Assembly: GCA_963708135.1 (NCBI GenBank) | Contig: OY970192.1 | Span: 2,368,001-2,432,000, forward strand | Source: an uncultured Gemmatimonadales bacterium | Lineage (GTDB): Bacteria > Gemmatimonadota > Gemmatimonadetes > Longimicrobiales > RSA9 | Length of the DNA: 64,000 nt | Reading direction: 5' to 3' | Made by a program: the position numbers and the translations under genes | The notes under the pieces: generated by a model | Told to the model about the DNA's origin: nothing | The model's input: the letters and a program-made list of their open reading frames with translations, nothing else | The model's database searches: none | Part shown: positions 1,310 through 59,997 of the stretch, piece by piece | Numbering within the stretch: the first letter of the stretch is position 1 | How the letters are laid out: the number at the start of each line of letters is the position of its first letter

Positions 1310-2631
1310 CAGTACTGTCCGGTTAAGCTGAGATGATGATGCCGTAACGGATTGCTACGTGGTGCGTTACGACGTTTTGGTTGCCGCACCGATTTGAACT
1401 TCGCTGCTGCGCCGCTATCCTGCCCGGACCCCCCGGCCGGAGTGGCGCATGAATCCCGGAAGCACGGTTTTCTCACAGGTGATGGCCCACGCATCTCGCT
1501 TCGCGCTCGATCGGTGCATCCGCCGCTACCACGGCAACCGGAGGGTCCGACGTTTCTCGTGTCGGGACCAGTTCCTCGCCATGGCCTTTGCCCAGCTCAC
1601 CTACCGGGAGAGCCTGCGGGACCTCGAGGCCACCCTCGGGGCGGCCCCCGAGAAGCTGTACCATCTTGGCTTCCGTTCGCCGCTCTCTCGCAGCACGCTC
1701 GCCGATGCGAACGAGAATCGCGACTGGCGCATCTACGCCGATTTCGCTCAACGCCTGATCGCAGACGCGCGTCGGCTCTACGCCGACGACACGTTGGGGA
1801 TCGAGCTCACGAACACCGTCTACGCGCTGGATTCCACCACGATCGACCTGTGTTTGTCGCTGTTCCCCTGGGCCTCGTTTCGTACGAGCAAAGGCGGCGT
1901 GAAGCTGCATACACTGCTCGACTTGGCAGGCAGGATCCCCGCCTACGCCTGGATCACGGACGCGAGCACCCACGATGTGCGCATCCTCAATGCGCTCATC
2001 CCGGAGCCCGGATCGATCTACGTCCTGGACCGCGGCTACGTCAACTTCGCCCGCCTCTACCGACTCGATCAGCACCGGGCCACCTTCGTCGTTCGCGCCA
2101 AGGCAAACCTCAAGTTCAACCGGCTCTCCTCAGGACCCGTCGATCGCACCACCGGCGTCTTCTGTGATCAGATCATCCGCCTTGCGCTGCCCCCGTCTGC
2201 CAGGGCCTATCCCGACCGGCTTCGCCGCGTGCGTTTCAAGGACGCAGGGTCCGGGCAGGACCTCGTCCTTCTGACCAACAACGTCGCGCTGCCCGCCGTT
2301 ACCGTGGCCGAGCTCTACCGCCTGCGGTGGCAGATCGAGCTCTTCTTCAAATGGATCAAGCAGCACCTCAGGATCAAGCGCTTCTTCGGCACGAGCGCGA
2401 ACGCTGTGCGCACGCAGATCTGGATCGCGATCAGCGTTTACGTCCTCGTCGCGATCGTCCGCAAGCGGCTCCGGATCGAGCGCGAACTCTACACAATTCT
2501 ACAGATCCTGAGCGTCTATGCGTTCGAGAAAGCCCCTCTCGCACAAGTACTTACGCGTTCGGCCTACACCCCCGAAGTCCCCTCCGATCGTAACCAGTTG
2601 TCGCTCTTCAACTTATAACCGGACACTACTG
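1310..2631 (+). mobile_element. IS4-family insertion sequence, 1322 bp
   Basis: Terminal IRs CAGTACTGTCCGGTTA / CAGTAGTGTCCGGTTA (1 mismatch); 9-bp target duplication AGCCTGGGG at 1301-1309 and 2632-2640. Confidence 0.95.
1449..2618 (+). CDS. IS4-family DDE transposase (DUF4372-type N-terminus)
   Basis: 389 aa; ALDSTTI, VLDRGY and YRLRWQIELFFKWIKQ (YREK-type) motifs. Confidence 0.95.
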   Translation: MNPGSTVFSQVMAHASRFALDRCIRRYHGNRRVRRFSCRDQFLAMAFAQLTYRESLRDLEATLGAAPEKLYHLGFRSPLSRSTLADANENRDWRIYADFAQRLIADARRLYADDTLGIELTNTVYALDSTTIDLCLSLFPWASFRTSKGGVKLHTLLDLAGRIPAYAWITDASTHDVRILNALIPEPGSIYVLDRGYVNFARLYRLDQHRATFVVRAKANLKFNRLSSGPVDRTTGVFCDQIIRLALPPSARAYPDRLRRVRFKDAGSGQDLVLLTNNVALPAVTVAELYRLRWQIELFFKWIKQHLRIKRFFGTSANAVRTQIWIAISVYVLVAIVRKRLRIERELYTILQILSVYAFEKAPLAQVLTRSAYTPEVPSDRNQLSLFNL

Positions 2632-2856
2632 AGCCTGGGGGAGAAACGGCGGTTCTACAGGATCGCCCGAAGGTCGGCTACCGAGTGCGCGGCGATCCTG
2701 TCCGTCGCGGAGCGCCTCGAGCTCGGCCAGTCAGCTGCGCGCGACCGCGGCCGTGAGCTCCTCGGTAGGATCGTGCCGATGCTGACCCGCCTGTGCGCCG
2801 CTCACCCACGCACCCACACCGCCCCCGAGCCCCCCGCCTGACCCCCACCCCCCGGC

Positions 2857-2904
2857 GCGCTTGCGCCTTGCGCTTGCCTCTTGCGCTTGCCTCTTGCGCC
2901 CTGC
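2857..2904 (-). repeat. Tandem array of ~7 CTTGC-core units (right arm, reverse complement of 891-1000)
   Basis: GCTTGC, GCCTTGC and CTCTTGC units; 2857-2877 is the exact reverse complement of 957-977. Confidence 0.9.
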
Positions 2905-2913
2905 GCCCTCCGT

Positions 2914-4047
2914 TCACCTCACCAGCCCCTGCCTCTCCATCTCCGCGAAGCTCGCCTCGACCCGGTCCTCGGCGGCCTGCCCGGCGGACCAGGCGAGCAG
3001 CTCGTCCAGGCCCTCGTCGAAGCTCAGGCGCGCCCGGAAGCCGAGGAGCTCCTCGGCGCATCGGGGGTCGCCGATGCAGTGGCGGATGTCGCCGGCGCGG
3101 TAGCGGCCGACCAGGCGGGGGGCGACGTCCACGCCGAGGCGCGAGGCGAGGCGCTCGGCGACCTCCGCGATCGTGACCGGGCGGCCCGTGCACACGTTGC
3201 AGACGCCGCTGCGGGCGGGCGGCGCCTCGAGGGCCGCGAGAACAGAGTCCGCGACGTCGTGCACGTGGATGAAGTCGCGGCTCTGGCGGCCGTCCTCGAA
3301 GACGAGCGGAGGATTGCCGTTCTTCAGCCGCCCCATGAAGATCGCGGCGACGCCGGTGTAGGGGTTCGAGAGCGCCTGGCGCGAGCCGAACACGTTGAAG
3401 AAGCGGAGCGCCAGGGTGGGAATCCGGTACGCCCCGCCGAAGCAGAGGGCGAGCTCCTCCTGCGTCTTCTTCGTGATGGCGTAGATGCTGGTGGCCTGGA
3501 GCGGCTTCTTCTCGGGCGTGGGGAGGGGCGCGAGCGCCTCGCCGCACGCCGGGCAGCGCACGTTCCAGCTGCCACCGGCGAGCTGTGCCTCGGGACGTGG
3601 CAATGGGGCGACGACACCGTGGTTCGGGCAGCGGCCGGCGCCTTCGCCATAGATGCTCATCGAGCTCGCGACGACGAAGCGGCGCCAGCGCGCGGGCTCG
3701 CGCGCCATCTCCTCCATGAGCATGCCCTGCCCGGCCACGTTGACGTCGGCATAGTAGTGGGGCTCGTACATCGACTGCCCGACCCCCACAGCGGCGGCGA
3801 GGTGGCAGACGGCGTCGGCCTCGCGCAGGGCATCCGCCACGGCGGTGCGGTCGCGCACGTCGCCGTGGACGAAGCGGATGCGGCCGGCGTCGAGGTGCGC
3901 CCGGAGGTGGACGGGCGAGGTCGCCTCGGGGCCGTGGACCTGGGGATCGAGGTTGTCGAGGACGGTGGGTTCGTGGCCGGCCTCGAGGAGGCGGTCCACG
4001 ACGTGGGAACCAATGAAGCCGGCGCCTCCGGTGACCAGCACACGCAT
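2914..4047 (-). CDS. NAD-dependent epimerase/dehydratase (extended SDR)
   Basis: GGAGFIGS, YAITK, RFFNVFG and SRDFIHV motifs; CxxH/CxxC insertion. Confidence 0.92.
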   Translation of the reverse strand: MRVLVTGGAGFIGSHVVDRLLEAGHEPTVLDNLDPQVHGPEATSPVHLRAHLDAGRIRFVHGDVRDRTAVADALREADAVCHLAAAVGVGQSMYEPHYYADVNVAGQGMLMEEMAREPARWRRFVVASSMSIYGEGAGRCPNHGVVAPLPRPEAQLAGGSWNVRCPACGEALAPLPTPEKKPLQATSIYAITKKTQEELALCFGGAYRIPTLALRFFNVFGSRQALSNPYTGVAAIFMGRLKNGNPPLVFEDGRQSRDFIHVHDVADSVLAALEAPPARSGVCNVCTGRPVTIAEVAERLASRLGVDVAPRLVGRYRAGDIRHCIGDPRCAEELLGFRARLSFDEGLDELLAWSAGQAAEDRVEASFAEMERQGLVR

Positions 4048-4093
4048 GCGTCGCTCCGTCGCAACGGGTGGGCGAGTGAACGGGGCGCCGGGA

Positions 4094-6295
4094 TCAGCGC
4101 TCCAGGTCGGACTCTCCGAAGCTTTCCTTGCGCTCGACGGACAGCACGCCGTTGATGCGCCGGATGGCCTTGATGACCTTCTTCAGGTGCGCGAGGTTCT
4201 GCACCTCGACGGCGAAGTTGCCGCGCATGCCGCCCTCGACGGCATGGATCTCGGCCGAGCGGATGTTCGTGCCCGTGCCGGTGATGGCGGAGGCGATGTC
4301 GGAGAGCAGGCCGCGCCGATCATTGCCCTCGACGACGAGGCGCACGAAGAAGCGGTCGCCGGACTCCGCCTGCCACTCGATCTCAATGCGCCGCTCGGGG
4401 TGCTCGCCCAGGTTGAGCACGTTCGGACAGTCCACGCGGTGGACGGAAATGCCGCGGCCGCGCGTGATGTAGCCGATCACGTCATCGCCCGGCACCGGCT
4501 GGCAGCACTGTGAGTAGCGGACCATCATGTTGTCCAGGCCCTGGATGCGCACGCCGCGACCGGAGCCGCGCACGCGGTCCACGAGGCGCTCGAACGCGGA
4601 GGCCGGCCGCGTCTGCGTCGGGTCCTCGCCCGGGTACAGCTCGCGCAGGATGGCCGCGGGGCCGAGCTCCCCGCGGCCCAGGGCGGCATAGACGTAGTCG
4701 AAGTCGGGCAGGTTCAGCGCGCGGGCGGTGCGCGTCATCGCCTCCTCGTCGGGCCGCTCCTTGCGCAGCTTCCTGAGCTCGCGCTCGAGCAGCTCGCGGC
4801 CGAGCTGGACGGAGGAGTCGAACTCCTCCTGCTTGATCCACTGGCGGATCTTCTGCCGCGCCCGCGCCGTCTTGACGAAGGCCAGCCAGTCCCGGGAGGG
4901 GCGCTGGCGGGCGTCGGTGAGCACCTCGACGGTGTCGCCGTTCTTGAGCTCCCTGGAGAGTGGCACGAGGCGCCCGTTCACCCGCGCGCCCGAGCAGTGG
5001 AGGCCGACCTCCGTGTGCACGGCGAAGGCGAAATCGATGGGCGTCGCGCCGCGCGGCAGCTGCTTCACGTCGCCCTTGGGCGTGAAGACGAAGATCTCGT
5101 CCTGGAAGAGGTCAATGCGGAGGAACTCCATGAACTCCTCCGGCTCGCGCGTCTCCTGCTGCCACTCGAGCACCTGACGGAACCAGGTGAGCGTCTCGTC
5201 CACCTCGTCCGACGGCCGGCTCTCCCCCTCCTTGTAGCGCCAGTGCGCCGCGATCCCGTGGTCCGCCGTCCGGTGCATCTCGAGCGTCCGGATCTGGATC
5301 TCGTACAGCCGCCCGCCCGGCCCGAAGATGGTCGTGTGCAGCGAGCGGTACATGTTCGACTTGGGCGTGGCGATGTAGTCGTGGAACCGCTCCTGCAGCG
5401 GCGTCCACTTGTTGTGGATCACGCCCAGCGCGTGGTAGCAGTTGGCGATCGTGTCGGTGACCACGCGGATCGCCATGAGGTCGTAGATCTCCTCGTACGG
5501 ACGGCCCCGCTTGACCATCTTGCGGTGGATCGACCAGAGGTGCTTCGGCCGGCCGTACACCTCGCACGGGATCCCCGCCTGCTTCAGCTCATCCTCGAGC
5601 GGACGGCGCAGCTCCTCGACCTGGTCCTCGCGCTCGCGCCGCCGCTCCGCGATCTTCGCCGCGAGATGACGGTATGGCTCCGGCTCCAGGTGCTTGAACG
5701 CCAGGTCCTCCAGCTCCCACCGGATCTGCGCCATCCCCAGCCGGTGCGCCAGCGGGGCGTAGATCTCGCGCGTCTCCAGCGCGATCCGCCGCCGCTTGTC
5801 GGGCCGCAGGTGCTCAAGGGTGCGCATGTTGTGCAGCCGGTCCGCCAGCTTGATGAGGATGACGCGCGCGTCGTGCGCCATCGACAGCAGCAGCTTGCGG
5901 TAGTTCTCCACCTGCTGCTCGGTGGTGGAGCGGAACTGGACCTTGCCGATCTTCGTGACACCATCGACGATTCGGCCGATCCCCTCCCCGAACTCCGCCT
6001 CCAGCTCGTCGAGCGTGATCAGCGTGTCCTCGACCACGTCGTGCATGAGCCCCGCGGCGATCGAGGCGGAGTCCAGACGCAGGTCGGCCAGGATCTTGGC
6101 CACCTCGACGCAGTGCACGATGTACTCCTCGCCCGACGCGCGCTTCTGTCCGCTGTGCGCCCGCTCGCTCGCCGCGTAGGCACGCGCGATCAGCTCGACG
6201 TCCAACCGGTCGGCGTAGGGCTCGATCGAGTCCCTGAGCCGCTCCGGCAGGCCGTCGAGGGCCGTGCTGCGGGCATCACGCGCGGCGGTGGCCAT
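4094..6295 (-). CDS. spoT: Bifunctional (p)ppGpp synthetase/hydrolase, RelA/SpoT family
   Basis: HD domain (LMHDVVEDT, KLADRLHNMRTL), synthetase (GRPKHLWSI, YRSLHTT, EIQIRT), TGS and ACT domains; start taken at MATAARD. Confidence 0.95.
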   Translation of the reverse strand: MATAARDARSTALDGLPERLRDSIEPYADRLDVELIARAYAASERAHSGQKRASGEEYIVHCVEVAKILADLRLDSASIAAGLMHDVVEDTLITLDELEAEFGEGIGRIVDGVTKIGKVQFRSTTEQQVENYRKLLLSMAHDARVILIKLADRLHNMRTLEHLRPDKRRRIALETREIYAPLAHRLGMAQIRWELEDLAFKHLEPEPYRHLAAKIAERRREREDQVEELRRPLEDELKQAGIPCEVYGRPKHLWSIHRKMVKRGRPYEEIYDLMAIRVVTDTIANCYHALGVIHNKWTPLQERFHDYIATPKSNMYRSLHTTIFGPGGRLYEIQIRTLEMHRTADHGIAAHWRYKEGESRPSDEVDETLTWFRQVLEWQQETREPEEFMEFLRIDLFQDEIFVFTPKGDVKQLPRGATPIDFAFAVHTEVGLHCSGARVNGRLVPLSRELKNGDTVEVLTDARQRPSRDWLAFVKTARARQKIRQWIKQEEFDSSVQLGRELLERELRKLRKERPDEEAMTRTARALNLPDFDYVYAALGRGELGPAAILRELYPGEDPTQTRPASAFERLVDRVRGSGRGVRIQGLDNMMVRYSQCCQPVPGDDVIGYITRGRGISVHRVDCPNVLNLGEHPERRIEIEWQAESGDRFFVRLVVEGNDRRGLLSDIASAITGTGTNIRSAEIHAVEGGMRGNFAVEVQNLAHLKKVIKAIRRINGVLSVERKESFGESDLER

Positions 6296-45040: not shown

Positions 45041-46129
45041 ATGGCGCGACCTGTGTCCAAGATCGAGATCACCGACGCCGAACGGCAAGAGCTTGAGCGG
45101 CGTGTGAAGGCGCCCAGCGTGTCCAAGCGCGACAGCCTTCGTGCCGCCATCGTGCTGCGGCGCGGGCGCGGTCTCGGCCAGGTGCAGGTGGCGCGGGAGC
45201 TGGGCGTGAGCGCCGCGTGCGTCAACAAGTGGTCCCAACGCTTCGAGCGCGAAGGCCTGGACGGCCTGAAGGATCGAAAAGGACGGGGCCGGCGCCCCTC
45301 GATCCCGGCGCACAAGGTGGAGCAGGTCATCACGCGGGCGACTCGGCCGCCCAAGCCGTGCACGCGTTGGAGTGTGCGCACAATGGCCCGTGAGGTCGGG
45401 ATCTCGCCGGACAGCGTGCACCGGATCTGGCGGGCAAACGAGATCAAGCCGCACCTGACGCAGACGTTCAAGCTGTCGAACGATCCGCGCTTCGAGGAGA
45501 AGTTCTGGGACGTGATCGGGCTGTATCTCGATCCGCCCGAGAGGGCGCTGGTCCTGTGTTGTGACGAGAAGAGCCAGTGCCAGGCCTTGGAGCGCACCCA
45601 ACCGGGCTTACCCCTCGGCGTCGGGGAGATTCGCACCAAGACCCACGACTACACCCGCCACGGCACCATCACGCTGTTTGCTGCACTGAACTACCTCGAC
45701 GGCAAATTGATCGCGCGCACGGAAGAGCGTCACACGCACGTCGAGTGGCTTCGCTTCCTCAAGCAGATCGATCGGGAGACGCCCAAGGATCTCGATCTAC
45801 ACCTCGTCGTGGACAATTACTGCACGCACAAGCAAGAGAGCGTAACCCAGTGGCTTGCGAAGCATCCGCGCTTCCACCTTCACTTCACGCCGACCAGCTC
45901 GTCCTGGTTGAATCTCGTCGAGCGCTTCTTCGGAGAGCTGACGCAGGACGTGATTCGGGAGGGCAGCTTCTCCAGCGTACGCGAGCTGGTGAGTGACATC
46001 GAGAGCTACTTGGCCGAACGAAAGCTCCATCCCAAGCCGTACCGGTGGCGAGCCAAAGGCGAGGACATCTTGCGCAAGATCCAGCGTGCACGCGAGGCGC
46101 TCACCGCAGTACGCTCGGAGTCTTGTTAA
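45041..46129 (+). CDS. IS630-family transposase
   Basis: HTH N-terminus; CCDEKSQCQAL, VDNYCTHK and TPTSSSWLNLVERFF motifs. Confidence 0.96.
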   Translation: MARPVSKIEITDAERQELERRVKAPSVSKRDSLRAAIVLRRGRGLGQVQVARELGVSAACVNKWSQRFEREGLDGLKDRKGRGRRPSIPAHKVEQVITRATRPPKPCTRWSVRTMAREVGISPDSVHRIWRANEIKPHLTQTFKLSNDPRFEEKFWDVIGLYLDPPERALVLCCDEKSQCQALERTQPGLPLGVGEIRTKTHDYTRHGTITLFAALNYLDGKLIARTEERHTHVEWLRFLKQIDRETPKDLDLHLVVDNYCTHKQESVTQWLAKHPRFHLHFTPTSSSWLNLVERFFGELTQDVIREGSFSSVRELVSDIESYLAERKLHPKPYRWRAKGEDILRKIQRAREALTAVRSESC

Positions 46130-46154
46130 ATCAACTCAATTGGCAGACACTACA

Positions 46155-47468
46155 CTACATGTATCGCTGCCGGCCGCGGAACCGAACGCGGCCCTTCTTC
46201 ATGAAGCCCTCGTAGTGGCGCAGCAGGAGGTGCTGCTGCATCTGCTGTACGGTGTCGAGGGCGACGCCGACGACGATGAGCAGCGAGGTGCCGCCGAAGA
46301 GGAAGAGCTGGGCTCCCAGCGCCTGACTGACCCAGAACGGGAGCAGCGCGATCAGGGCCAGGTAGATGGAGCCGGGCAGCGTGATCCGGCTGAGCACGTA
46401 GTCGATGTACTCGACCGTGCGCGCCCCCGGCTTCACGCCGGGAATGAAGGCCCCCTGCTTCTTGAGGTTGTCCGCCAGATCGACCGGATTGAAGATGATC
46501 GCCGTGTAGAAGTAGGTGAAGAAGACGATCAGGATCGAGTAGGCGAGGTAGTAGCCGGGCGTGCCGACCTGCACGTAATCGGCGATCATCTTCAGGAACG
46601 GCACGTTGGCGAAGGTGGCGGCCGTCGTCGGCACGATGATGATCGACTGCGCGAAGATGATCGGCATCACGCCGGCCGAGTTGATGCGCAGCGGGATGAA
46701 GCTCTTCTGGCCCTCGCGGATCCGGCCTCGTCCCATGACCTTGCGCGGGATCTGGACGGGGATCTTGCGGGCGGCCATGGTCATGGCGACCACACCGGCC
46801 ACCACCCCGATCATGAGCAGGACGATCATTACCAGGGCCGGAATGCTGATGACGCTGGTGGTCACCGCCTCCCAGGTACGGGCGAGGGCGGAGGGGAAGC
46901 GGTCGATGATGTTGAAGAAGATCAGCAGCGACATGCCGTTGCCGATCCCCCGCTCGGTAATCATCTCCCCGAGCCACATGACGAAGACCGCGCCGCTGGT
47001 CATGATCAGCGCAGTGCTGATCATGAAGCTGAAGCCGGGGTAGCGCACCGCCCCCTGCATGCTCTGCAGGAACACCGCGTAGCCCCACGCCTGAAGGAAG
47101 GAGAGGGCGACGGTGGCGTAGCGGGTCCACTGCGTGAGCTTCTTCCGCCCGTCCTCGCCCTCCTTCTGCATCTTCTCGACCGTCGGGAAGACGGCCGCCA
47201 GCAGCTGGAACATGATGCTGGCGGAGATATACGGCATGATGCCGAGGGAGAAGATGGTCGCCCGCTGCAGGGCGCCGCCGACGAAGAGGTCGTAGAGGCC
47301 GAGCACGGTGCCCTGGAGCTGGCCGAACTGCTGCTGCAGCACGCCCACGTCGAGGCCCGGCGCGGTGATGTGGGCGCCGATGCGGTAGACGAAGAGCGCC
47401 AGGAGGGTGAAGAGGATCTTCTCCTTCAGCTCCGGGATCTTCCAGAGGTTGGGAATCGGGTTGGCCAT
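46155..47468 (-). CDS. secY: Preprotein translocase subunit SecY
   Basis: LGIMPYISASI, GIGNGMSL, AGVMPIIFA and GGTSLLIVVGV motifs. Confidence 0.98.
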   Translation of the reverse strand: MANPIPNLWKIPELKEKILFTLLALFVYRIGAHITAPGLDVGVLQQQFGQLQGTVLGLYDLFVGGALQRATIFSLGIMPYISASIMFQLLAAVFPTVEKMQKEGEDGRKKLTQWTRYATVALSFLQAWGYAVFLQSMQGAVRYPGFSFMISTALIMTSGAVFVMWLGEMITERGIGNGMSLLIFFNIIDRFPSALARTWEAVTTSVISIPALVMIVLLMIGVVAGVVAMTMAARKIPVQIPRKVMGRGRIREGQKSFIPLRINSAGVMPIIFAQSIIIVPTTAATFANVPFLKMIADYVQVGTPGYYLAYSILIVFFTYFYTAIIFNPVDLADNLKKQGAFIPGVKPGARTVEYIDYVLSRITLPGSIYLALIALLPFWVSQALGAQLFLFGGTSLLIVVGVALDTVQQMQQHLLLRHYEGFMKKGRVRFRGRQRYM

Positions 47469-47472
47469 GCGC

Positions 47473-47925
47473 TCAGCTCTCCAGCAGCTCGACCGCGCCG
47501 CCCGCGGCCTCGATCTTGGCGCGGGCGCTCGCGCTCACGGCGTGGGTCCGAACGGTGAGCTTGCGGTCGATGTCGCCATCTCCAAGAAGCTTGATGGGCA
47601 GCTTCGAGCCCCTGCTGACGAGGCCGCTCGCGCCGAGGGTCTCGGGCGTGACCTCGTCGCCGTCGATGCGGCCGAGGTCGCGCAGGTTGACGACCGCGTA
47701 CTCCGTGCGGAACCGATTCGTGAAGCCGCGCTTCGGGACGCGCCGCTGGAGCGGCATCTGTCCCCCCTCGAACCAGGAGGGCATGCCGTGATGGCCGGTG
47801 CGGGCCTTCTGGCCCTTGTGACCCTTGCCGGCGGTCTTGCCCTTCCCCGAGCCGGGGCCGCGGCCGATGCGCTTGCGGCGGCGGTTGGCGCCGTCCGGGC
47901 TGCGCAGATTGCTGAGGTCCGTCAT
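47473..47925 (-). CDS. rplO: 50S ribosomal protein uL15
   Basis: [19 protein letters not shown] and FEGGQMPL motifs. Confidence 0.98.
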
Positions 47926-48149
47926 TTCTGCTCCTCGCCTGCCTCGACCTCCTGGACGGCCACCAGGTGCTGGACCTGGAAGAGCATGCCCCGGATCGCG
48001 GGCGTATCCGTCTGAATGACCGACTGCTGATGCCGCCGCAGCCCGAGCGCACGCAGCGTCGCCCGATGCTTGCCCGGGCGACCGTTCCCGCTCCTGACCT
48101 GCGTGATCCTCAGCTTCCGCGGCGCGTCGGCCTCTTTCTTCCTAGCCAC
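47922..48149 (-). CDS. rpmD: 50S ribosomal protein uL30
   Basis: LRITQVRS...[10 protein letters not shown]...PAIRGML. Confidence 0.95.
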
Positions 48150-48675
48150 GGCGTACCCCCAGCTCCTGGACGGTGATCCCTCGCTCCGCGGCCACCTGCT
48201 CGGCCGTCACCAGCTCCGTCAGACCGTTGAACGTGGCGCGGGCGACATTGATCGGGTTGTCCGAGCCGAGGCTCTTCGTGAGCACGTCGCTGATGCCGAC
48301 GGCCTCCAGCACGGCGCGCACGGGACCGCCCGCGATCACGCCCGTTCCGGCGCCGGCCGGCTTCAGCAGCACCCGGGCCGAGCCCTGCCTGCCGATGATC
48401 TCGTGCGGTATGGTTCCGGACTGCACCGGCACCTCGACCATGCCGCGCCGCGCCTGCTCGAGCCCCTTCCGGATCGCCTCCGCGACCTCGTTCGCCTTGC
48501 CGAGCGCGAGGCCGACCTTGCCCTTCTTGTCCCCCACCGCCACCAGCGCGGTGAAAGAGAAGCGCCGGCCGCCTTTCACGACCTTTGCGACGCGATTGAC
48601 GAACACGACGTTCTCGACGAGGTCCGACTGCTCCCGCCCCCGCCGGCCGCCCCCGCCTCTCTGGTCTCTAGCCAT
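48142..48675 (-). CDS. rpsE: 30S ribosomal protein uS5
   Basis: [16 protein letters not shown] and GTGVIAGG motifs. Confidence 0.98.
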
Positions 48676-48711
48676 TCCGCTGCCTCTCCATTCGCGATGC
48701 GGGCACAGCCC

Positions 48712-49098
48712 TCAGAACTCCAGGCCGCCCTCGCGGGCGCCTTCCGCGAAAGCGGCGATGCGCCCGTGGTACAGGTAGCCGCCGCGATCGAACACGACGC
48801 CCGTGATCCCGGCCGCCTTCGCGCGCTCCGCCAGCAGGCGGCCGGCAGCGCGGCTTGCGGCGGTCTTGCTCAGCTCCTCCTCCTCGCCCTGCCGCTCGCG
48901 CAGCTCCGGCGCGAGGGTGGAAACGCCGAGGAGCATCTTGCCGCTGACGTCGTCCGTCAGGTGGCCCTGCATGTTTTTCAGCGAGCGGTGCACGACGAGG
49001 CGCGGCCGGTCCGCCGTGCCCTCGACCTTGCGGCGGACGCGGCGGTGCCTGCGCAGCCGCTGCTGCTCGCGATCTCTCGACTTCTGTCTGAATGCCAT
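48712..49098 (-). CDS. rplR: 50S ribosomal protein uL18
   Basis: [22 protein letters not shown] and AREGGLEF motifs. Confidence 0.97.
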
Positions 49099-49114
49099 GG
49101 TCCGTGTCCCCGGG

Positions 49115-49654
49115 CTACTTGGCGCCCGCCTTGCCGGCCTTGCGCCGGACTTGCTCACCCTGATAGCGGATCCCCTTGCCCTTGTAGGGCTCCGGCGGCC
49201 GAACCGCCCGGATCTCCGCCGCGACCTGTCCAACCTTTTCCTTGTCGATCCCCTCGACCAGCACCGTTGTCGGGGTGGGCGCCGTGAGCGAGATCCCCGC
49301 CGGCTCCGGGTATACGACGGTATGCGAGTAGCCCACGCTCAGGACCAGCGTGCCACCCTTCTTCTCCGCCCGGTAGCCGACGCCGATGATCTCGAGCGCG
49401 CGCCGGAAGCCGGCGGAGACGCCCTGCACCATGTTGGCGAGGAGCGCCCGCGTGAGGCCGTGCAGGGCGCGGTGCATCGTCTCGTCCGACGGCCGCTCGA
49501 CGAGGACCTGCCCGTCCTCGATCCGGATCGTCATCTCGGAGCGGAAGGTGCGCTCGAGCTCGCCCTTTGGCCCCTTCACCCGGACCGTCGCGCCGTCCAC
49601 GCTCACCGTGACACCGCTCGGGATCGGGATCGGCTTCTTGCCAATGCGTGACAT
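49115..49654 (-). CDS. rplF: 50S ribosomal protein uL6
   Basis: MSRIGKKPI...[11 protein letters not shown]. Confidence 0.98.
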
Positions 49655-49670
49655 CAGTTCGTCTCTCCGC

Positions 49671-50063
49671 TCACCAGACCAGCGCCATGACTTCGCCACC
49701 CACGTTGCGGGCGCGCGCCTCCTTGTCCGACATGAGACCCTGCGGCGTGGAGACGATCGCGATGCCCAGGCCGCCGCGGACGCGCGGCAGCGCCGAGGCG
49801 CCGGAATAGGCGCGCCTGCCCGGGCGCGAGATGCGCTGCAGGTTCCGGATCACGGGCCGGTCCTCGTAGTACTTGAGGTAAAGGCGGAGCACGCCGTGAC
49901 GCCCGTCATCCAGCAGCTTGTAGTCGTGGATGAAGTGGTGCTCCTTGAGGACGCGCGCGATCTCGGTCTTGAGCTTGGAGGGAGGCACATCCACGCGGCG
50001 GTGCCGCGCCCCCCCTGCGTTGCGGATGCGCGTGAGCATGTCCGCGACAGGGTCCGTCATCAT
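49671..50063 (-). CDS. rpsH: 30S ribosomal protein uS8
   Basis: [13 protein letters not shown]...GLGIAIVST...GGEV. Confidence 0.98.
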
Positions 50064-50075
50064 GTCGGTGATCTC

Positions 50076-50110
50076 TCCTATAGTATCCGGTCGCTGCCGG
50101 ACTTGTAGGA
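50076..50110 (-). promoter_or_regulatory. Candidate S8-binding operator hairpin (16S helix-21 mimic) overlapping the rpsH SD
   Basis: UCCUAC-AAGUC-CGG-cagcga-CCG-GAUACU-AUAGGA; the 3' strand includes AGGA of the AGGAG SD. Confidence 0.65.
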
Positions 50111-50127
50111 ACTGGGGAATCCAGCTC

Positions 50128-50313
50128 TTACCAGCTCGCCTTGCGAACGCCCGGGATCTCGCCGCGCAGCGACATCTCGCGGAAGCAGATACGGCACAGC
50201 CCGAACTTGCGGATGAAGGCCCGCGGCCGGCCGCAACGGGTGCAGCGGTTGCGGGTGCGGACGCCGAACTTCGGCTTGCGCCGCGACTTCTCGATGAGCG
50301 CCTTTCTGGCCAT
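50128..50313 (-). CDS. rpsN: 30S ribosomal protein uS14 (61 aa, zinc type)
   Basis: RCTRCGRPR...LCRICFRE...GVRKASW. Confidence 0.98.
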
Positions 50314-50342
50314 GTTCCTCTCGTCTCGGTGTGGCGGCGCGC

Positions 50343-50933
50343 TCAGACGGCCGCGCCGCTCAGCTCTTCGCCGGACACGATGACGGGCGTGCCGCCCCGG
50401 AACGGCATTCCCAGCTCGCGCAGCAGGGCGAACGCCTCGTCGTCCTTGTCGGTCGTGCTGACCATGACGATGTCCATCCCGTGCACCTGCGCGACCTTGT
50501 CGTACTCGATCTCGGGGAAGATGAGCTGCTCCTTGACCCCGAGGTTGTAGTTGCCGCGGCCGTCGAAGGAGCGCGTCGGCAGGCCGCGGAAATCACGGAT
50601 CCGCGGTATGGCCACGTTGATGAGCCGGTCCAGGAACTCATACATCCTGGGGCCACGCAGCGTGACCATGGCACCAATGGGCATTCCCTGCCGGATGCCG
50701 AAGTTGGAGATCGCCTTCCGCGCCCGCGTCACGACCGGCTTCTGGCCGGTGATCATTCCCAGCTCCTCGAGCACCGACTCGAGCAGCTTCGGGTTCTTCG
50801 GCGCCTCGCCGACGCCAACGTTCAGAACCACCTTCTCGATGCGCGGGACCCGCAGCGGGTTGTCGAAGCCGAATTCCTCCATGAGCTTCGGCTGGATCCG
50901 CTCCTCATAGTACTTCTGCAGTCTGGGCTTCAT
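50343..50933 (-). CDS. rplE: 50S ribosomal protein uL5
   Basis: [14 protein letters not shown] and FDGRGNY motifs. Confidence 0.98.
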
Positions 50934-50946
50934 CTGCTCCCGTTCC

Positions 50947-51330
50947 TTAGCCCTGCGGCTTCGGGATGGCGTTGCCGCTCTTGGCCGCGATCCGCTCCTT
51001 GGTGCCGCCCTCGTCGATGTGCGCGCGTGTCCGGGTCGGATCGCCGCTCTTCGGGTCGAGCAGCATCACGTTGGAGGCATGGATCGGCGCCTCGAAGGTG
51101 ATGATGCCGCCCTCCGGGTTGGCATCGCTGGGCCGGGTGTGCCGCTTGCGCAGGTTCACGCCCTCCACGACCACCCGATTCTCCTTGGCCAGGACGCGCA
51201 GGATCGTGCCCTCCATGCCGGCGTGGTTGCCTCGCGTCACGCGCACATGATCGCCGCGGCGCACGTGCATCTTCTGGCGCTTCTTCTGACTGTGGCGGGC
51301 GGTGCCCATGCCCATGACCATGCGGGTCAT
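50947..51330 (-). CDS. rplX: 50S ribosomal protein uL24 (start uncertain; possible N-terminal extension)
   Basis: [15 protein letters not shown] and EAPIHASNV motifs. Confidence 0.95.
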
Positions 51331-51698
51331 CAGATCACCTCCGGCGCGAGCGAGACGATCTTCATGAACCGCTTCTCGCGCAGCTCGCGGCCGACGGGGC
51401 CGAAAATGCGCGTGGCGCGCGGCTCGCCGGCGTCGTTGATGAGCACGGCCGCGTTGTCGTCGAACCGGATGTAGGAGCCATCCTTGCGGCGAGCCTCCTT
51501 CGCGGTGCGGACGACGACCGCCCGGGCGACCTCGCCCTTCTTGACGGTGCCGTGCGGGATGGCGTCCTTGATGGCGACGATGATGATGTCGCCCACACGC
51601 GCGTAGCGGCGGCCGGAGCCACCGAGGACGCGAATGCAGAGCGCCTCCTTGGCACCCGAGTTGTCCGCGATCTTGAGCCTGGTCTCCTGCTGGATCAT
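51330..51698 (-). CDS. rplN: 50S ribosomal protein uL14
   Basis: [17 protein letters not shown]...SLAPEVI. Confidence 0.98.
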
Positions 51699-51708
51699 TG
51701 TCCGCGCC

Positions 51709-51984
51709 TCACTTCGCCCGCTCGACGATCTCGACGACCCGCCAGCGCTTCAGCTTGGACAGAGGCCGGGTCTCCATGATGCGGACCCTGTCGCCCGCGT
51801 GCGCCTGCCGCTCCTCATCGTGCGCGTAGTACCTCTTGGTGCGCGCGACCTTCTTGCCGTAGAGCCGGTGCGAGACTTGGCGCCCGACCGCGACGACGAC
51901 CGTCTTGTCCATGCGGTCGCTCACCACGGTTCCCACGCGCGTCTTGCGGCTCCCTCTCGTCTCGTCAGCCATATCCGGACTCAT
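51709..51984 (-). CDS. rpsQ: 30S ribosomal protein uS17
   Basis: [14 protein letters not shown]...[11 protein letters not shown]. Confidence 0.97.
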
Positions 51985-52187
51985 TGCTGGGCCTGCTCAG
52001 CGAGCTCGCGCTCGCGCAGGATCGTCTTCATGCGCGCCAGGTCACGGCGCAGCGTCTTGAGCAGCGCCGTATTTTCGAGCTGCTGGGTGGCGCCGCGGAA
52101 CCGGAGCCGGAACAGCTCCTCGTGGATCTCGCCGATGCGGTCGGCGATCTCGCTCTCCGTCAGGTCCCTGATCTCGGCGGCCTTCAC
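51981..52187 (-). CDS. rpmC: 50S ribosomal protein uL29
   Basis: GTG start; KAAEIRDL...ELFRLRF...ARMKTIL. Confidence 0.96.
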
Positions 52188-52615
52188 GCGTTGCCTCCCT
52201 CCGCACCGCGCTCGCGCACGATGAACTTCGTCTTGACGGGCAGCTTGGCGGCGGCCAGAGCGAAGGCGCGGCGGGCGATGTCTTCGGGCACGCCCTCGAG
52301 CTCGAACATCATGCGTCCCGGCTTGACCACCGCGACCCACATCTCCGGGCTGCCCTTGCCCTTCCCCATCCGCGTCTCCGCGGGCTTCTTCGTGACCGGC
52401 TTGTCCGGGAAGATGCGAATCCAGACCTTGCCGCCACGCTTGATGTGACGCGTCATGGCGACACGGGCGGCCTCGATCTGCCGGTTGGTGATCCAGCCCG
52501 GCTCCATCGTCTGCAAGCCGTAATCGCCAAAGGAAACGGCGTTGCCCCGCGTGGCCATGCCGCGCGTGCGACCCTTCTGCTGCTTGCGGTACTTGACTCT
52601 CTTCGGCGCCAGCAT
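52184..52615 (-). CDS. rplP: 50S ribosomal protein uL16
   Basis: [11 protein letters not shown]...RMGKGKG. Confidence 0.98.
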
Positions 52616-52629
52616 GGCTCCTGCCCCTA

Positions 52630-53289
<660 letters not shown>

Positions 53290-53290
53290 G

Positions 53291-53641
53291 TTACTCCTTA
53301 CGATCCACGACGATCACGACATGGCTGGTCGGCCGCCGGATCGGCGCCGCACGGCCCATGGCGGCGGCGCGCCAGCGCTTGAGGCGCGGGCCTTCGTTGA
53401 CGAAGGCTTCCCTGACGACGAGGTCGTCAACGTCCACGAACTCGCCCGCGTCCTCCGCCTTGGCCCGCGCGTTGGCGACGGCCGAGCGCAGCGTCTTGTC
53501 GATCTGCACCGCAGCCCGCTTCTTCGAGAACTGGAGCAGCGCGTACGCCTCGCCCACGCCGCGACCCCGGATGAGGTCCGCGACGAGCCGCATCTTGCGC
53601 GGGCTCTGCCGGATATGCCTGGACTCTGCCCGAGCTTTCAT
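53291..53641 (-). CDS. rplV: 50S ribosomal protein uL22
   Basis: [14 protein letters not shown]...SAVANA. Confidence 0.98.
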
Positions 53642-53642
53642 C

Positions 53643-53930
53643 TCACCTCGCCCTGGATCGCTTGTCCGCCAGCTTGCCGCCGTGCCCGCGGAAGAGCCGC
53701 GTGGGCGAGAACTCGCCCAGCTTGTGGCCGACCATGTTCTCCGTGACGTAGACGGGAATGAACTTGTTCCCGTTGTGCACGGCGAGGGTGTGGCCGACGA
53801 AGTCCGGGGAGATCATCGACGCCCTCGACCAGGTCTTCACGACCCGCCTCTCGTTCCTCGAGTTCATCTGCTGGATCTTGCCCAGCAGCTTCGGCTCGAT
53901 GTGCGGCCCCTTCTTGATCGATCTCGACAT
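53643..53930 (-). CDS. rpsS: 30S ribosomal protein uS19
   Basis: MSRSIKKGP...KTWSRAS...[11 protein letters not shown]. Confidence 0.98.
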
Positions 53931-53946
53931 GGCTCGGTCGTATCCC

Positions 53947-54786
53947 TCAGCTCGTGGCCTTGCCGCGCTTACGGCCGCGGACGATGTGCTGGTTCGACTT
54001 CTTCTTGTGGTCGCGCGTCTTCCTGCCCTCGGGCTTGCCCCAGGGCGAGACGGGCGGCCGGCCGCCCGACGTCCGACCCTCGCCGCCGCCCAGCGGGTGG
54101 TCCACGGGATTCATGGCGACGCCGCGCACCTTGGGCCGGCGGCCGCGCCAGCGGCTCGCGCCCGCCTTGCCGATGGTCTGCAGGTTGTGATCGCCGTTGC
54201 CGACCTGGCCGATCGTGGCGAAGCAGGTCCGGTGGATCATGCGGACCTCCGTCGAGGGCATCCGCAGCGTCACGTAGTCGCCCTCCTTGGCCATCACCTG
54301 GGCGCCGGCGCCGGCGGTGCGGACGAGCTGTGCCCCCTTGCCGCGCTTCATCTCCAGGTTGTGGACCACCGTGCCCAGGGGGATCTCCGCCAGGGGCAGG
54401 GCGTTGCCCACCCGGATGTCGGAGCCGGGCCCGCTCACCACCGTTTCCCCCGGGGCGAGCCCCTTGGGGTGCAGGATGTAGCGCTTGTCGCCGTCCGCGT
54501 AGTGGACGAGCGCGATGTTGGCGCTGCGGTTCGGGTCGTACTCGATCTCGGCGATCCTGCCCGGCACGCCGATCTTGTCGCGCTTGAAGTCGATCTTGCG
54601 GTAAACGCGCTTCGCGCCACCGCCGCGCCGGCGCGAGGTGATCCGGCCGTGGTGATTGCGGCCGCCGGACTTCTTGAGCGGCTCGGTCAGCGACTTCTCC
54701 GGTCCCCGTCGCGTCACGACGTCGTGCTCGACGACGGCCCGGAAGCGGCTGGACGCGGTGACAGGCTTGAACTTCTTGATCGGCAT
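53947..54786 (-). CDS. rplB: 50S ribosomal protein uL2
   Basis: EYDPNRSA and [17 protein letters not shown] motifs. Confidence 0.98.
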
Positions 54787-54790
54787 CGGA

Positions 54791-55081
54791 CTAGATCCCC
54801 TCGTAGACGTCGATGCGCTCGCCCGGGGCGAGCTTGACGATCGCCTTCTTGTAGCCGGGCCGGCGGCCGATGCTGCGGCCGACGCGGCGCAGCTTGCCGC
54901 GGTAGTTCATGGTCCGCACGTCGGCGACGCGCACGGCGAACAGCCGCTCGACGGCGTTACGGATCTCGATCTTGTTGGACTCGGGCGCGACGATGAAGGC
55001 GTACGCGCCCTCATTCTCGCCCATGTCCGTGGACCGCTCCGTGACGACGGGGCGGATCAGGACCTCGCGCGGGCTACGCAT
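54791..55081 (-). CDS. rplW: 50S ribosomal protein uL23
   Basis: [17 protein letters not shown] and KKAIVKL motifs. Confidence 0.97.
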
Positions 55082-55706
55082 GGGCCACCTCCCCGGCGCG
55101 CTCGAGCGCGGGCTCCTCGATGATGAGCGTGTCGGCCCAGAGCACGTCATACGCGGACTCGGTGCCGAAGGCCTGCACCTGGACGCCCGAAAGGTTACGG
55201 GCGGAGCGGTAGACGAGCGGCTTGTGGCCGTCGGTCAGGATCAGCACGTTGCCGCTCGTGCCGGCGGCGGCCAGGAGCTGCGTGATGCGGCGCGTCTTCG
55301 GCGCATCGAAGTCGAGGGCATCCACAACCAGCACCGCTCCGTCCTGGGCCCGCGCGTTGTAGGCGGAGCGCCGCGCGAGCCAGCGCACCTTCCGCGGCAC
55401 GGCCTCGTGGAAGTTCCGGTTCGCCCGCGGGCCGAAGACGTTACCGCCTCCGCGCCAGTGCGGCGCACGCGTGGAGCCCACGCGCGCCCGGCCGGTGCCC
55501 TTCTGGCGCCATGGCTTGCTGTTGCCGCCGGACACGTAGCGGCGGGTCTTCGTGGCCGCCGTCGCCTGGCGCTGGTTGGCCAGGTAGGCCTTCACGGTCT
55601 GCCACATGGCGGCCTCGTGGATCGTGCCGTCGAAGAGCGTGTCCGGAAGCTCCGTCTCGGCCGACTTCTTCTCGCCCTCGGCCGTAAAGGCGGCTGCCTT
55701 GAACAT
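55074..55706 (-). CDS. rplD: 50S ribosomal protein uL4
   Basis: [15 protein letters not shown]...GGGNVFGP. Confidence 0.98.
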
Positions 55707-55732
55707 CGTCGAATCTCCCGCGCCCGCCACGA

Positions 55733-56353
55733 TTATACCTTCCTCAGGAACACGAGGCTGTTGCGCGCCCCCGGGACCGCGCCACGGACGAAGATCAGGT
55801 TGCGCCCGGCGTCCACACGCTCCACGCGCACGTTGCGCAGCGTGTGCTGCTGTCCGCCCATCTGCCCCGGCATCTTCTTGCCCTTGATCACGCGTGACGG
55901 GTTCGTGCCAGGACCGAGAGAGCCGACGTTGCGCGCCTTCGGGTGCCCATGGGAGCCGGGGCGTCCGCGGAAGCCGTGGCGCTTCATGGCGCCCTGGAAG
56001 CCGCGGCCCTTCGTCGTGCCGACCACCTTGATTCGCTGGCCGGCCTCGAACTGCTCGACCGTCAGCTGCTGGCCCGGCTCGAAGCCCTCGGGCTCGGCGA
56101 CGCGGAACTCGTGCAGCGTACGCGGCGCGTACTCCAGCCCGGCACGGGCGGCGTGGCCGCGCTCGGCGCGCGTGCTGCGGCGCTCCTTGCGGGCGCCCCA
56201 GCCGAGCTGGATGGCCGTATAGCCGTCCGTCTCCGCGGTCTTGACCTGCGTCACGGGGCAGGGGCCGGCCTCGATCACGGTGACCGGCACGGCGCTGCCA
56301 TCCTCTTTGAAGATCTGGGTCATCCCCAGCTTGCGTCCGATGAGTGCCGACAT
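55733..56353 (-). CDS. rplC: 50S ribosomal protein uL3
   Basis: GRKLGMTQIF, KGRGFQG and RGAVPG motifs. Confidence 0.98.
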   Translation of the reverse strand: MSALIGRKLGMTQIFKEDGSAVPVTVIEAGPCPVTQVKTAETDGYTAIQLGWGARKERRSTRAERGHAARAGLEYAPRTLHEFRVAEPEGFEPGQQLTVEQFEAGQRIKVVGTTKGRGFQGAMKRHGFRGRPGSHGHPKARNVGSLGPGTNPSRVIKGKKMPGQMGGQQHTLRNVRVERVDAGRNLIFVRGAVPGARNSLVFLRKV

Positions 56354-56357
56354 CGCC

Positions 56358-56666
56358 CTAGTCCACCTTGATCTCGACGTCCACACCGGCCGGCAGATCC
56401 AGCTTGGTGAGCGCGTCGATCGTCTGGGGCCGCGAGTCGATGATGTCGATGACCCGCTTATGGGTCTTCAGCTCGAACTGCTCGCGGCTCTTCTTGTCCA
56501 CGTGGGGCGAGCGCAGCACGGTCCAACGCTGGATCCGCGTCGGTAGCGGGATCGGGCCGCTGACGCGCGCACCGCTCTTCTCCGCCGTGCGGACGATGTC
56601 CGAGGCGGTCTGGTCGATGACGGCGTGGTCGAACGCCTTGAGCCGGATCCTGATCTTGCCAGCCAT
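56358..56666 (-). CDS. rpsJ: 30S ribosomal protein uS10
   Basis: [10 protein letters not shown]...[13 protein letters not shown]. Confidence 0.98.
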
Positions 56667-56693
56667 AGTCTCTTTTCTCTCGCGCGTGCCGCG

Positions 56694-57887
<1,194 letters not shown>

Positions 57888-57899
57888 GATCTCTTCTCC

Positions 57900-59997
<2,098 letters not shown>

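Follow-up and report, generated by a model that had tools for sequence, protein, structure and literature searches.

Introduction

The closest described system is the spc operator of Escherichia coli, where ribosomal protein S8 is described as repressing translation of the operon at an mRNA mimic of 16S rRNA helix 21 (h21) near the start of rplE (PMC3616713; PMC10931766), as the initial annotation of the locus studied here also states. This operator is described as overlapping the start and coding sequence of rplE, as confined to Gammaproteobacteria, and as carrying irregularities that lower its affinity (PMC3616713). In the E. coli K-12 operator, AAGUC (+80 to +84) lies 3' of GAAACU (+6 to +11), which makes the site permuted relative to h21; its base triple is given as A+80-(A+81-U+11) (PMC4176348). 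In h21 itself, the determinants named for S8 are the triples A595-(A596-U644) and (G597-C643)-U641 together with the invariant A642, which stacks on a Ser-Thr-Ser/Thr tripeptide of S8, and a Thermus variant of the site has G595-(C596-G644) (PMC4176348).

Autogenous leaders that imitate rRNA are also known for L1, L20, S15, and S4 (Eckert and Weinberg 2020), and Table 1 of that paper lists 20 leaders, none with S8 as ligand. The main text of Narunsky et al. 2024 (PMC11109978) mentions neither rpsH nor S8, and its supplement lists 30 ribosomal-leader candidates. A 2024 review describes spc regulation outside E. coli and Vibrio as unknown (PMC10931766). Our literature search, which covered main texts, found no S8 leader outside Gammaproteobacteria, in keeping with the initial annotation, which knew of no description of an S8 site at the position reported here in this lineage.

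We describe an h21-like hairpin directly upstream of rpsH, the gene for S8 (uS8), in a genome of the Gemmatimonadota. The hairpin is conserved before rpsH in three families of this phylum, spanning at least two orders, and is a likely S8 operator.

Results

An h21-like hairpin occupies the rpsN-rpsH spacer

In the window, the whole 64-kb stretch of DNA that was analysed, the S10/spc ribosomal gene cluster is encoded on the minus strand, to which all coordinates below refer unless otherwise stated. Pfam places L5 (rplE) at 50933-50343. It is followed by rpsN (50128..50313), an open reading frame for a short S14 of 61 aa (Pfam Ribosomal_S14, E 1.2e-23) with its UAA stop at 50130-50128, and then by a 64-nt spacer (50064..50127) that houses the hairpin. 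The AUG of rpsH lies at 50063, and the gene (49671..50063), which encodes both the proposed ligand and the proposed regulated product, specifies an S8 of 130 aa (Pfam Ribosomal_S8, E 2.8e-46). Downstream, rplF (L6; 49115..49651; Pfam) begins 19 nt past the rpsH stop and leads a series of tightly packed distal genes, with rpsE/rpmD and rpmD/rplO overlapping and a gap of 4 nt between rplO and secY by the ORF coordinates. The cluster ends with secY (46155-47468), which adjoins a transposase ORF of 362 aa on the plus strand (45041-46129; Pfam DDE_3 plus HTH_32/HTH_23).

The S8 of the window is an ordinary member of its family, matching solved bacterial S8 chains with E 3.4e-44 and retaining RNA-contact residues, namely a Tyr and the Ser-Thr of the tripeptide on which A642 stacks. 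Residues ~104-106 read Ser-Thr-Pro, where the aligned solved S8 proteins have Ser-Thr-Ser. The conserved Tyr is the one that contacts the G597 region.

Read on the minus strand, the hairpin runs from 50110 to 50076 as UCCUAC-AAGUC-CGG/cagcga/CCG-GAUACU-AUAGGA, just as first annotated. Its lower stem is formed by an anti-SD-like 5' strand, UCCUA (50106..50110), that pairs with 50080-50076. At the top of this stem, C50105 stands opposite A50081; these correspond to 16S positions 594 and 645 and form a C.A mismatch. The core follows, with AAGUC (50100..50104), equivalent to 16S 595-599, facing GAUACU (50082..50087), equivalent to 639-644. An upper stem, CCGG/CCGG (50087..50100), closed by the loop CAGCGA (50096-50091), takes the place of the distal arm of h21. 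The lower stem has UAGGA as its 3' strand, and this strand plus one G (50075..50080) contains the rpsH SD, AGGAG (50079-50075), 11 nt before the AUG, which bears out the earlier statement that the hairpin holds most of this SD. The element thus sits in the spacer between rpsN and rpsH, as the ORFs and Pfam domains confirm, and not at the start of rplE, the position that the initial annotation had contrasted with it.

Folded alone, the hairpin pairs the SD and has a predicted energy of -14.0 kcal/mol. When 101 nt are folded, the minimum free energy (MFE) structure lacks the lower stem and its stability is no better than that of shuffles (z -1.05). With only 5 bp, lying beyond a 3x4 internal loop, the lower stem would be weak without a clamp. 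A small hairpin, GCUGG-auucc-CCAGU (50111..50125), is predicted directly 5' of the element in the MFE fold of the 70-nt spacer, in which AGGAG is also paired, and it abuts the lower stem. In relatives (L004, L005, L008, L013, and L018-L020), the stretch from the rpsN stop to the S8-type element often contains, by eye, an extra small GC-rich hairpin whose sequence is unrelated between genomes; such a hairpin might shield the operator from ribosomes that terminate at rpsN. On the minus strand between 49600 and 50600, no site resembling a promoter or terminator was found, and a terminator, attenuator, or internal promoter was discarded as an explanation of the spacer on this ground.

The core reproduces the S8 site of h21

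The core numbering given in the initial annotation is correct for E. coli, as K-12 rrsH has AAGUC at 595-599 and GAUACU at 639-644. With the numbering so checked, the claim that all 11 core nucleotides are reproduced in register also holds (11/11). Against the organism's own h21, a comparison that had been proposed, the match is 10/11: AAGUC/GAAACU is the core in both of its 16S genes, and 594-645 is a C-G pair there. Every S8 determinant named in PMC4176348 is present in the hairpin core.

The element and the S8 site of h21 (E. coli 588-651, core 595-599/639-644) are therefore alike in core nucleotides, register, and strand order, and also in covariation at 596-644 (below). They differ in that the Gemmatimonadota element sits in mRNA, its distal arm is a short variable hairpin in place of the 39-nt arm of h21, position 594-645 is a C.A mismatch, and the lower helix is a pairing of SD and anti-SD-like strands.

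With the E. coli spc operator the element shares the operon, the proposed ligand, mimicry of the h21 core, and irregularities in the mRNA site that are absent from the rRNA site; translational repression and coupling to distal genes would be shared as well. In contrast to the E. coli site, which lies two genes upstream of rpsH, the one described here is non-coding and acts, as proposed, on rpsH itself from the rpsN-rpsH spacer. It keeps the strand order of h21 (AAGUC 5', GAUACU 3'), whereas that of E. coli is permuted; it is ~35-50 nt long instead of ~80 nt; it would mask the SD and not the AUG region; and it belongs to Gemmatimonadota rather than Gammaproteobacteria. An E. coli-type site at rplE or elsewhere was also considered and set aside, the model search of the organism's own genome having matched the spacer only.

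A scan of 46000-58000 against Rfam 15, a search that the initial annotation had recommended, gave no match at the spacer with E up to 10 and only three chance matches elsewhere. As Rfam 15 also has no match to the E. coli S8 operator (L238, K-12 spc region 2000-4400), a blank in Rfam is uninformative about S8 leaders.

Seven core bases are invariant and the stems covary

To gauge conservation independently of the motif, the region before rpsH was collected from the organism's own genome and 29 relatives picked on their S8 protein regardless of the motif. It is found in 26 of these 30 S8-anchored loci: in the own genome, in 18/21 genomes of the same family, in 7/7 of a second family of the order, and in 0/1 of a third. 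The three own-family genomes that lack it have spacers of 0-22 nt. One of these, L006, keeps only CCAUAGGAGAG right after the rpsN stop, so that the AUAGGAGAG half of the lost stem is retained as the SD. Gene order also varies in f2, a family of the same order: rpsH directly follows rplE, without rpsN between them, in L032, L166, and L167, and rpsN is present in L168.

An alignment of 46 copies was then assembled, none of them taken from the pattern scan described below. Of 51 sources, 46 matched, the misses being the four motif-less relatives and L183. As seen from this alignment, 98.0% of cells are paired, while registers slid along the structure give 32-53%. Compensatory changes occur in 7/11 pairs, and by helix in 3/5 pairs of the lower stem and 4/7 pairs of helix 1; the covariation score was reached by 0/500 shuffles. 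The pairs of the lower stem are kept in 98%. These alignment figures overstate independence, as the alignments are model fitted and the genomes related.

The stems drift and seven core bases do not. G597, U598, C599, G639, A640, A642, and C643 are invariant in 46/46 copies, so that within the 5' strand G, U, and C never change. Position 641 is U in 42 copies and A in 4; at 595, A predominates (41 copies), with G in 3 and C in 2. The 596-644 pair is Watson-Crick in 45/46, as A-U (28), C-G (11), or G-C (6). The apical loop ranges from ~3 to >20 nt without sequence conservation. The mismatch below the core is itself conserved, with C.A at 594/645 in 32/46 copies and a non-standard pair in 42/46. 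Set beside an h21-type S8 site, the copies have A595 next to a Watson-Crick 596-644 pair; G597-C643 with nucleotide 641, which would form a triple, and the invariant A642; and, in 46/46 each, U598/A640 and a C599-G639 pair that opens a covarying distal helix. Two copies, L163 and L165, have the exact Thermus-like form, GCGUC/GAUACG. This pattern is the signature of a protein-recognised internal loop between two helices, and it agrees with the published description of the S8 site.

The position relative to the start site is also constrained: across the 46 copies, 8-18 nt (median 13) separate the 3' end of the lower stem from the AUG. In the own family and in the Longimicrobium-type family, the 3' strand of the stem is the SD-like AGGAG. 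About 8/46 copies, all from f8, a Gemmatimonadaceae-type family, have GUAGAA, GUGGAA, or CGGAA in the stem and no good SD there; their GAGGA-like SD stands separately, 1-3 nt downstream.

A lone hairpin of this kind is not rare. Under a loose generic rule (core plus at least 5/6 lower pairs plus 3 upper pairs), the window has 1 match, at the spacer, and shuffled windows average 1.45. With a covariance model built from relatives, the spacer is the sole match in the organism's own 5.4-Mb genome, at 58.5 bits and E 6.8e-12, with the next best candidate at E 0.57. What exceeds chance is the place and the conservation of the hairpin.

The element is restricted to part of the Gemmatimonadota

A pattern scan was run over one genome per species from 185,579 species, with positions 596 and 644 left free and UCCU/AGGA and GUCC/GGAUAC fixed. 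At least 120 stretches matched, of which 80 loci were read. Among these 80 listed loci, 53 have S14 upstream and are followed after 9-20 nt by an S8 gene, and all 53 come from records titled Gemmatimonas, Gemmatimonadaceae, Gemmatimonadales, Gemmatimonadota/-etes, Longimicrobium, or Longimicrobiales. Relatives with identical copies of the motif carry Longimicrobiales or Gemmatimonadales titles. The 596-644 pair, left free in the scan, is Watson-Crick in all 53 S8-linked listed loci (G-C 23, A-U 16, C-G 14). The remaining 27 listed loci, from other phyla and archaea, are not beside S8 and count as chance matches; in these, the pair is Watson-Crick in 9/27.

A first covariance model (R1), built from AAGUC/GAUACU copies only, proved too narrow, with 1/10 matches in f8, and was rebuilt as R2, which matched 6/10. 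Applied to an even class sample of 151 genomes, R2 gave 13 matches: the own genome, 3/4 of the own family (the fourth is also without an S8 match), 3/3 of the second family, and 6/10 of f8, which belongs to another order. All 13 lie 6-21 nt before the S8 match. A covariation-backed structure upstream of the gene for the proposed ligand, as is characteristic of ribosomal leaders, is thus found in 13/13 class-sample matches and 53/53 S8-linked listed loci.

In six other families of the class, R2 found nothing (0/32, 0/31, 0/28, 0/3, 0/35, and 0/4). S8 is present in 139/151 genomes of the class sample; each of the four large negative families contributes 21-35 genomes with S8. In a phylum sample, 19/151 genomes matched, with 16/31 in f8; five families unmatched in the class sample again gave 0/16, 0/71, 0/6, 0/1, and 0/1, and four more gave 0/2, 0/13, 0/3, and 0/3. 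When 20 upstream regions of non-matched genomes were read directly, 18/20 were without the motif. In the 17 regions from the six negative families, rpsN ends 3-25 nt before rpsH or rplE lies directly before rpsH, and spacers of 3-25 nt leave no room for the hairpin. The other three regions came from f8 genomes missed by R2, of which L184 and L185 have divergent copies and L183 has no motif.

The core is kept and the stems covary over 46 copies from three families, and the element was not found in six other families. Families with short spacers and no hairpin mark the element as a discrete, dispensable insert, whose distribution reflects either repeated loss or a small number of gains.

The hairpin and the rRNA diverge in one family

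The 16S genes of four f8 genomes (L196-L199, from G201, G109, G250, and G093) have an h21 core of AAGCG/CGAACU in three genomes and AAGGG/CCGACU in one. These differ from the mRNA motif of f8 at 598, 599, 639, 640, and 641. The 598-640 pair of the f8 16S looks Watson-Crick and covaries, while the f8 mRNA hairpins keep the classical U598/A640. The f8 h21 core is unusual compared with the U598/A640 found in E. coli, in the window's own 16S, and in the rpsH hairpins of f8 itself.

Given these five core differences, mimicry of the organism's own rRNA is strict only in the lineage of the window; the f8 hairpin copies the general bacterial consensus and not its own rRNA. With different cores in rRNA and mRNA, the S8 of f8 would need to accept both types. 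The discrepancy either speaks for an S8 that tolerates both cores or weakens the S8 reading in this family. The alternative core AGGCC/GGAACC in rpsH mRNA hairpins of Actinomycetes, described below, favours tolerance.

Similar hairpins precede rpsH in Actinomycetes

An even sample of 30 Actinomycetes loci, less L217, L219, and L223 and with a Pseudarthrobacter locus added, gave 28 loci (L203 and L207-L236); L271 and L272 were also examined. By a strict core-plus-stems rule, an h21-like hairpin lies immediately upstream of rpsH in 23/28, and inspection by eye shows look-alikes in the remaining 5. Carriers include Pseudarthrobacter sp., Streptomyces luteolus, and Streptosporangium violaceochromogenes. 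Two core types are seen, AGGUC/GA[A/U]ACC and AGGCC/GGAACC, and Rfam has no match on the 5 Actinomycetes loci searched. The Actinomycetes hairpins share with the Gemmatimonadota element their place (directly before rpsH, after rpsN or rplE), strand order, and core, and an SD at or just past the 3' end of the lower stem. Unlike it, they have a lower stem of the CGCCG/CGGCG type, an AGGAAGG-like SD, and often a long apical arm.

In a Clostridia class sample, the strict rule gave 1 match in 30 loci, and this match was judged spurious since it is located inside rpsN. By eye, 2/30 loci (L252 and L260) have a candidate core, AGGUG...CAAACC, in long structured spacers with an offset lower stem; the other 28/30 have short spacers and a plain GGAGG SD. 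Single genomes of Polyangium, Gelidibacter, a Nitrospirae MAG, an Aminicenantes MAG, and a Solirubrobacterales MAG show no motif before rpsH by eye, and in three Bacillota MAGs S8 itself was unmatched with the queries used.

Discussion

Taken together, these data make it likely that the hairpin is a translational operator through which S8 represses rpsH. S8 made in excess of free 16S rRNA would bind the internal loop and clamp the weak 5-bp lower stem. With the rpsH SD serving as its 3' strand, the clamped stem would shut out the 30S subunit and leave rpsH untranslated. The genes from rplF onward, whose tight packing is what translational coupling requires, would probably drop too. Nascent 16S rRNA, when available, would compete S8 off the mRNA. 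The C.A mismatch conserved below the core probably makes the mRNA site the weaker of the two, which would give rRNA first call on S8. So arranged, the element would work like the E. coli operator, but it does not belong to the same operator family.

Other readings of the same hairpin have to be weighed against this one. That it binds S8 but serves mainly some purpose other than translational repression, such as capture of nascent S8 for local assembly, protection of the distal mRNA from decay, or marking of a processing site that would separate the distal spc genes from rplN-rpsN, would fit a core conserved as an S8 site, the copies whose SD lies outside the stem, and the many relatives with a further GC-rich hairpin just upstream. 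We think it improbable, as the SD makes up one side of the clamped stem in most copies, the stem always ends 8-18 nt from the AUG, and the sole studied precedent, the E. coli spc operator, is described as a translational repressor (PMC3616713; PMC10931766). Similarly low is the probability we give to a hairpin that masks the SD or stabilises the mRNA with no protein, or with a protein other than S8, and resembles h21 by coincidence. The predicted energy of about -14 kcal/mol with the SD paired would suit such a hairpin, and generic core-plus-stem matches are not rare in random sequence, but this reading leaves unexplained why seven unpaired or non-canonical loop bases are invariant in 46/46 copies while stems and loop drift, and why the exact h21 register is kept together with a covarying 596-644 pair in 53/53 S8-linked listed loci. 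The finding of the element before rpsH only, in the own genome and the class sample, also speaks against it.

Functionless resemblance by chance is the least credible of the alternatives, and by a wide distance. The loose rule does expect about one such hairpin per window; the recurrence of the element at the same place in three families and at least two orders, its E value of 6.8e-12 in the own genome, and a covariation score above all 500 shuffles already contradict it.

The S8 operator reading may reach beyond this phylum. Together with the Actinomycetes hairpins, the Gemmatimonadota element is probably one instance of a wider, undescribed class. We give equal weight to belief and doubt on a broader proposal, in which hairpins copying h21 directly before rpsH are a widespread, perhaps the commonest, means of autoregulating S8 and the distal spc genes, the rplE operator of E. 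coli is a derived oddity, and the U598.A640 and C598-G640 core types are interchangeable S8 ligands. Such hairpins are present in three Gemmatimonadota families and in most Actinomycetes sampled, with candidates in some Clostridia. Of the two core types, Gemmatimonadaceae have one in rRNA and the other in mRNA, and both occur in the mRNAs of Actinomycetes.

As a compact natural candidate ligand of ~35 nt with clear covariation, the element would be useful for asking how one protein reads two versions of its site, and its conserved C.A mismatch offers a handle on how an mRNA site may be tuned to be weaker than the rRNA site. For the Gemmatimonadota, a poorly studied soil phylum, it provides a directly testable candidate for S8 control, which, with the actinomycete look-alikes, may extend to a large, well-studied phylum that has cultured, tractable species.
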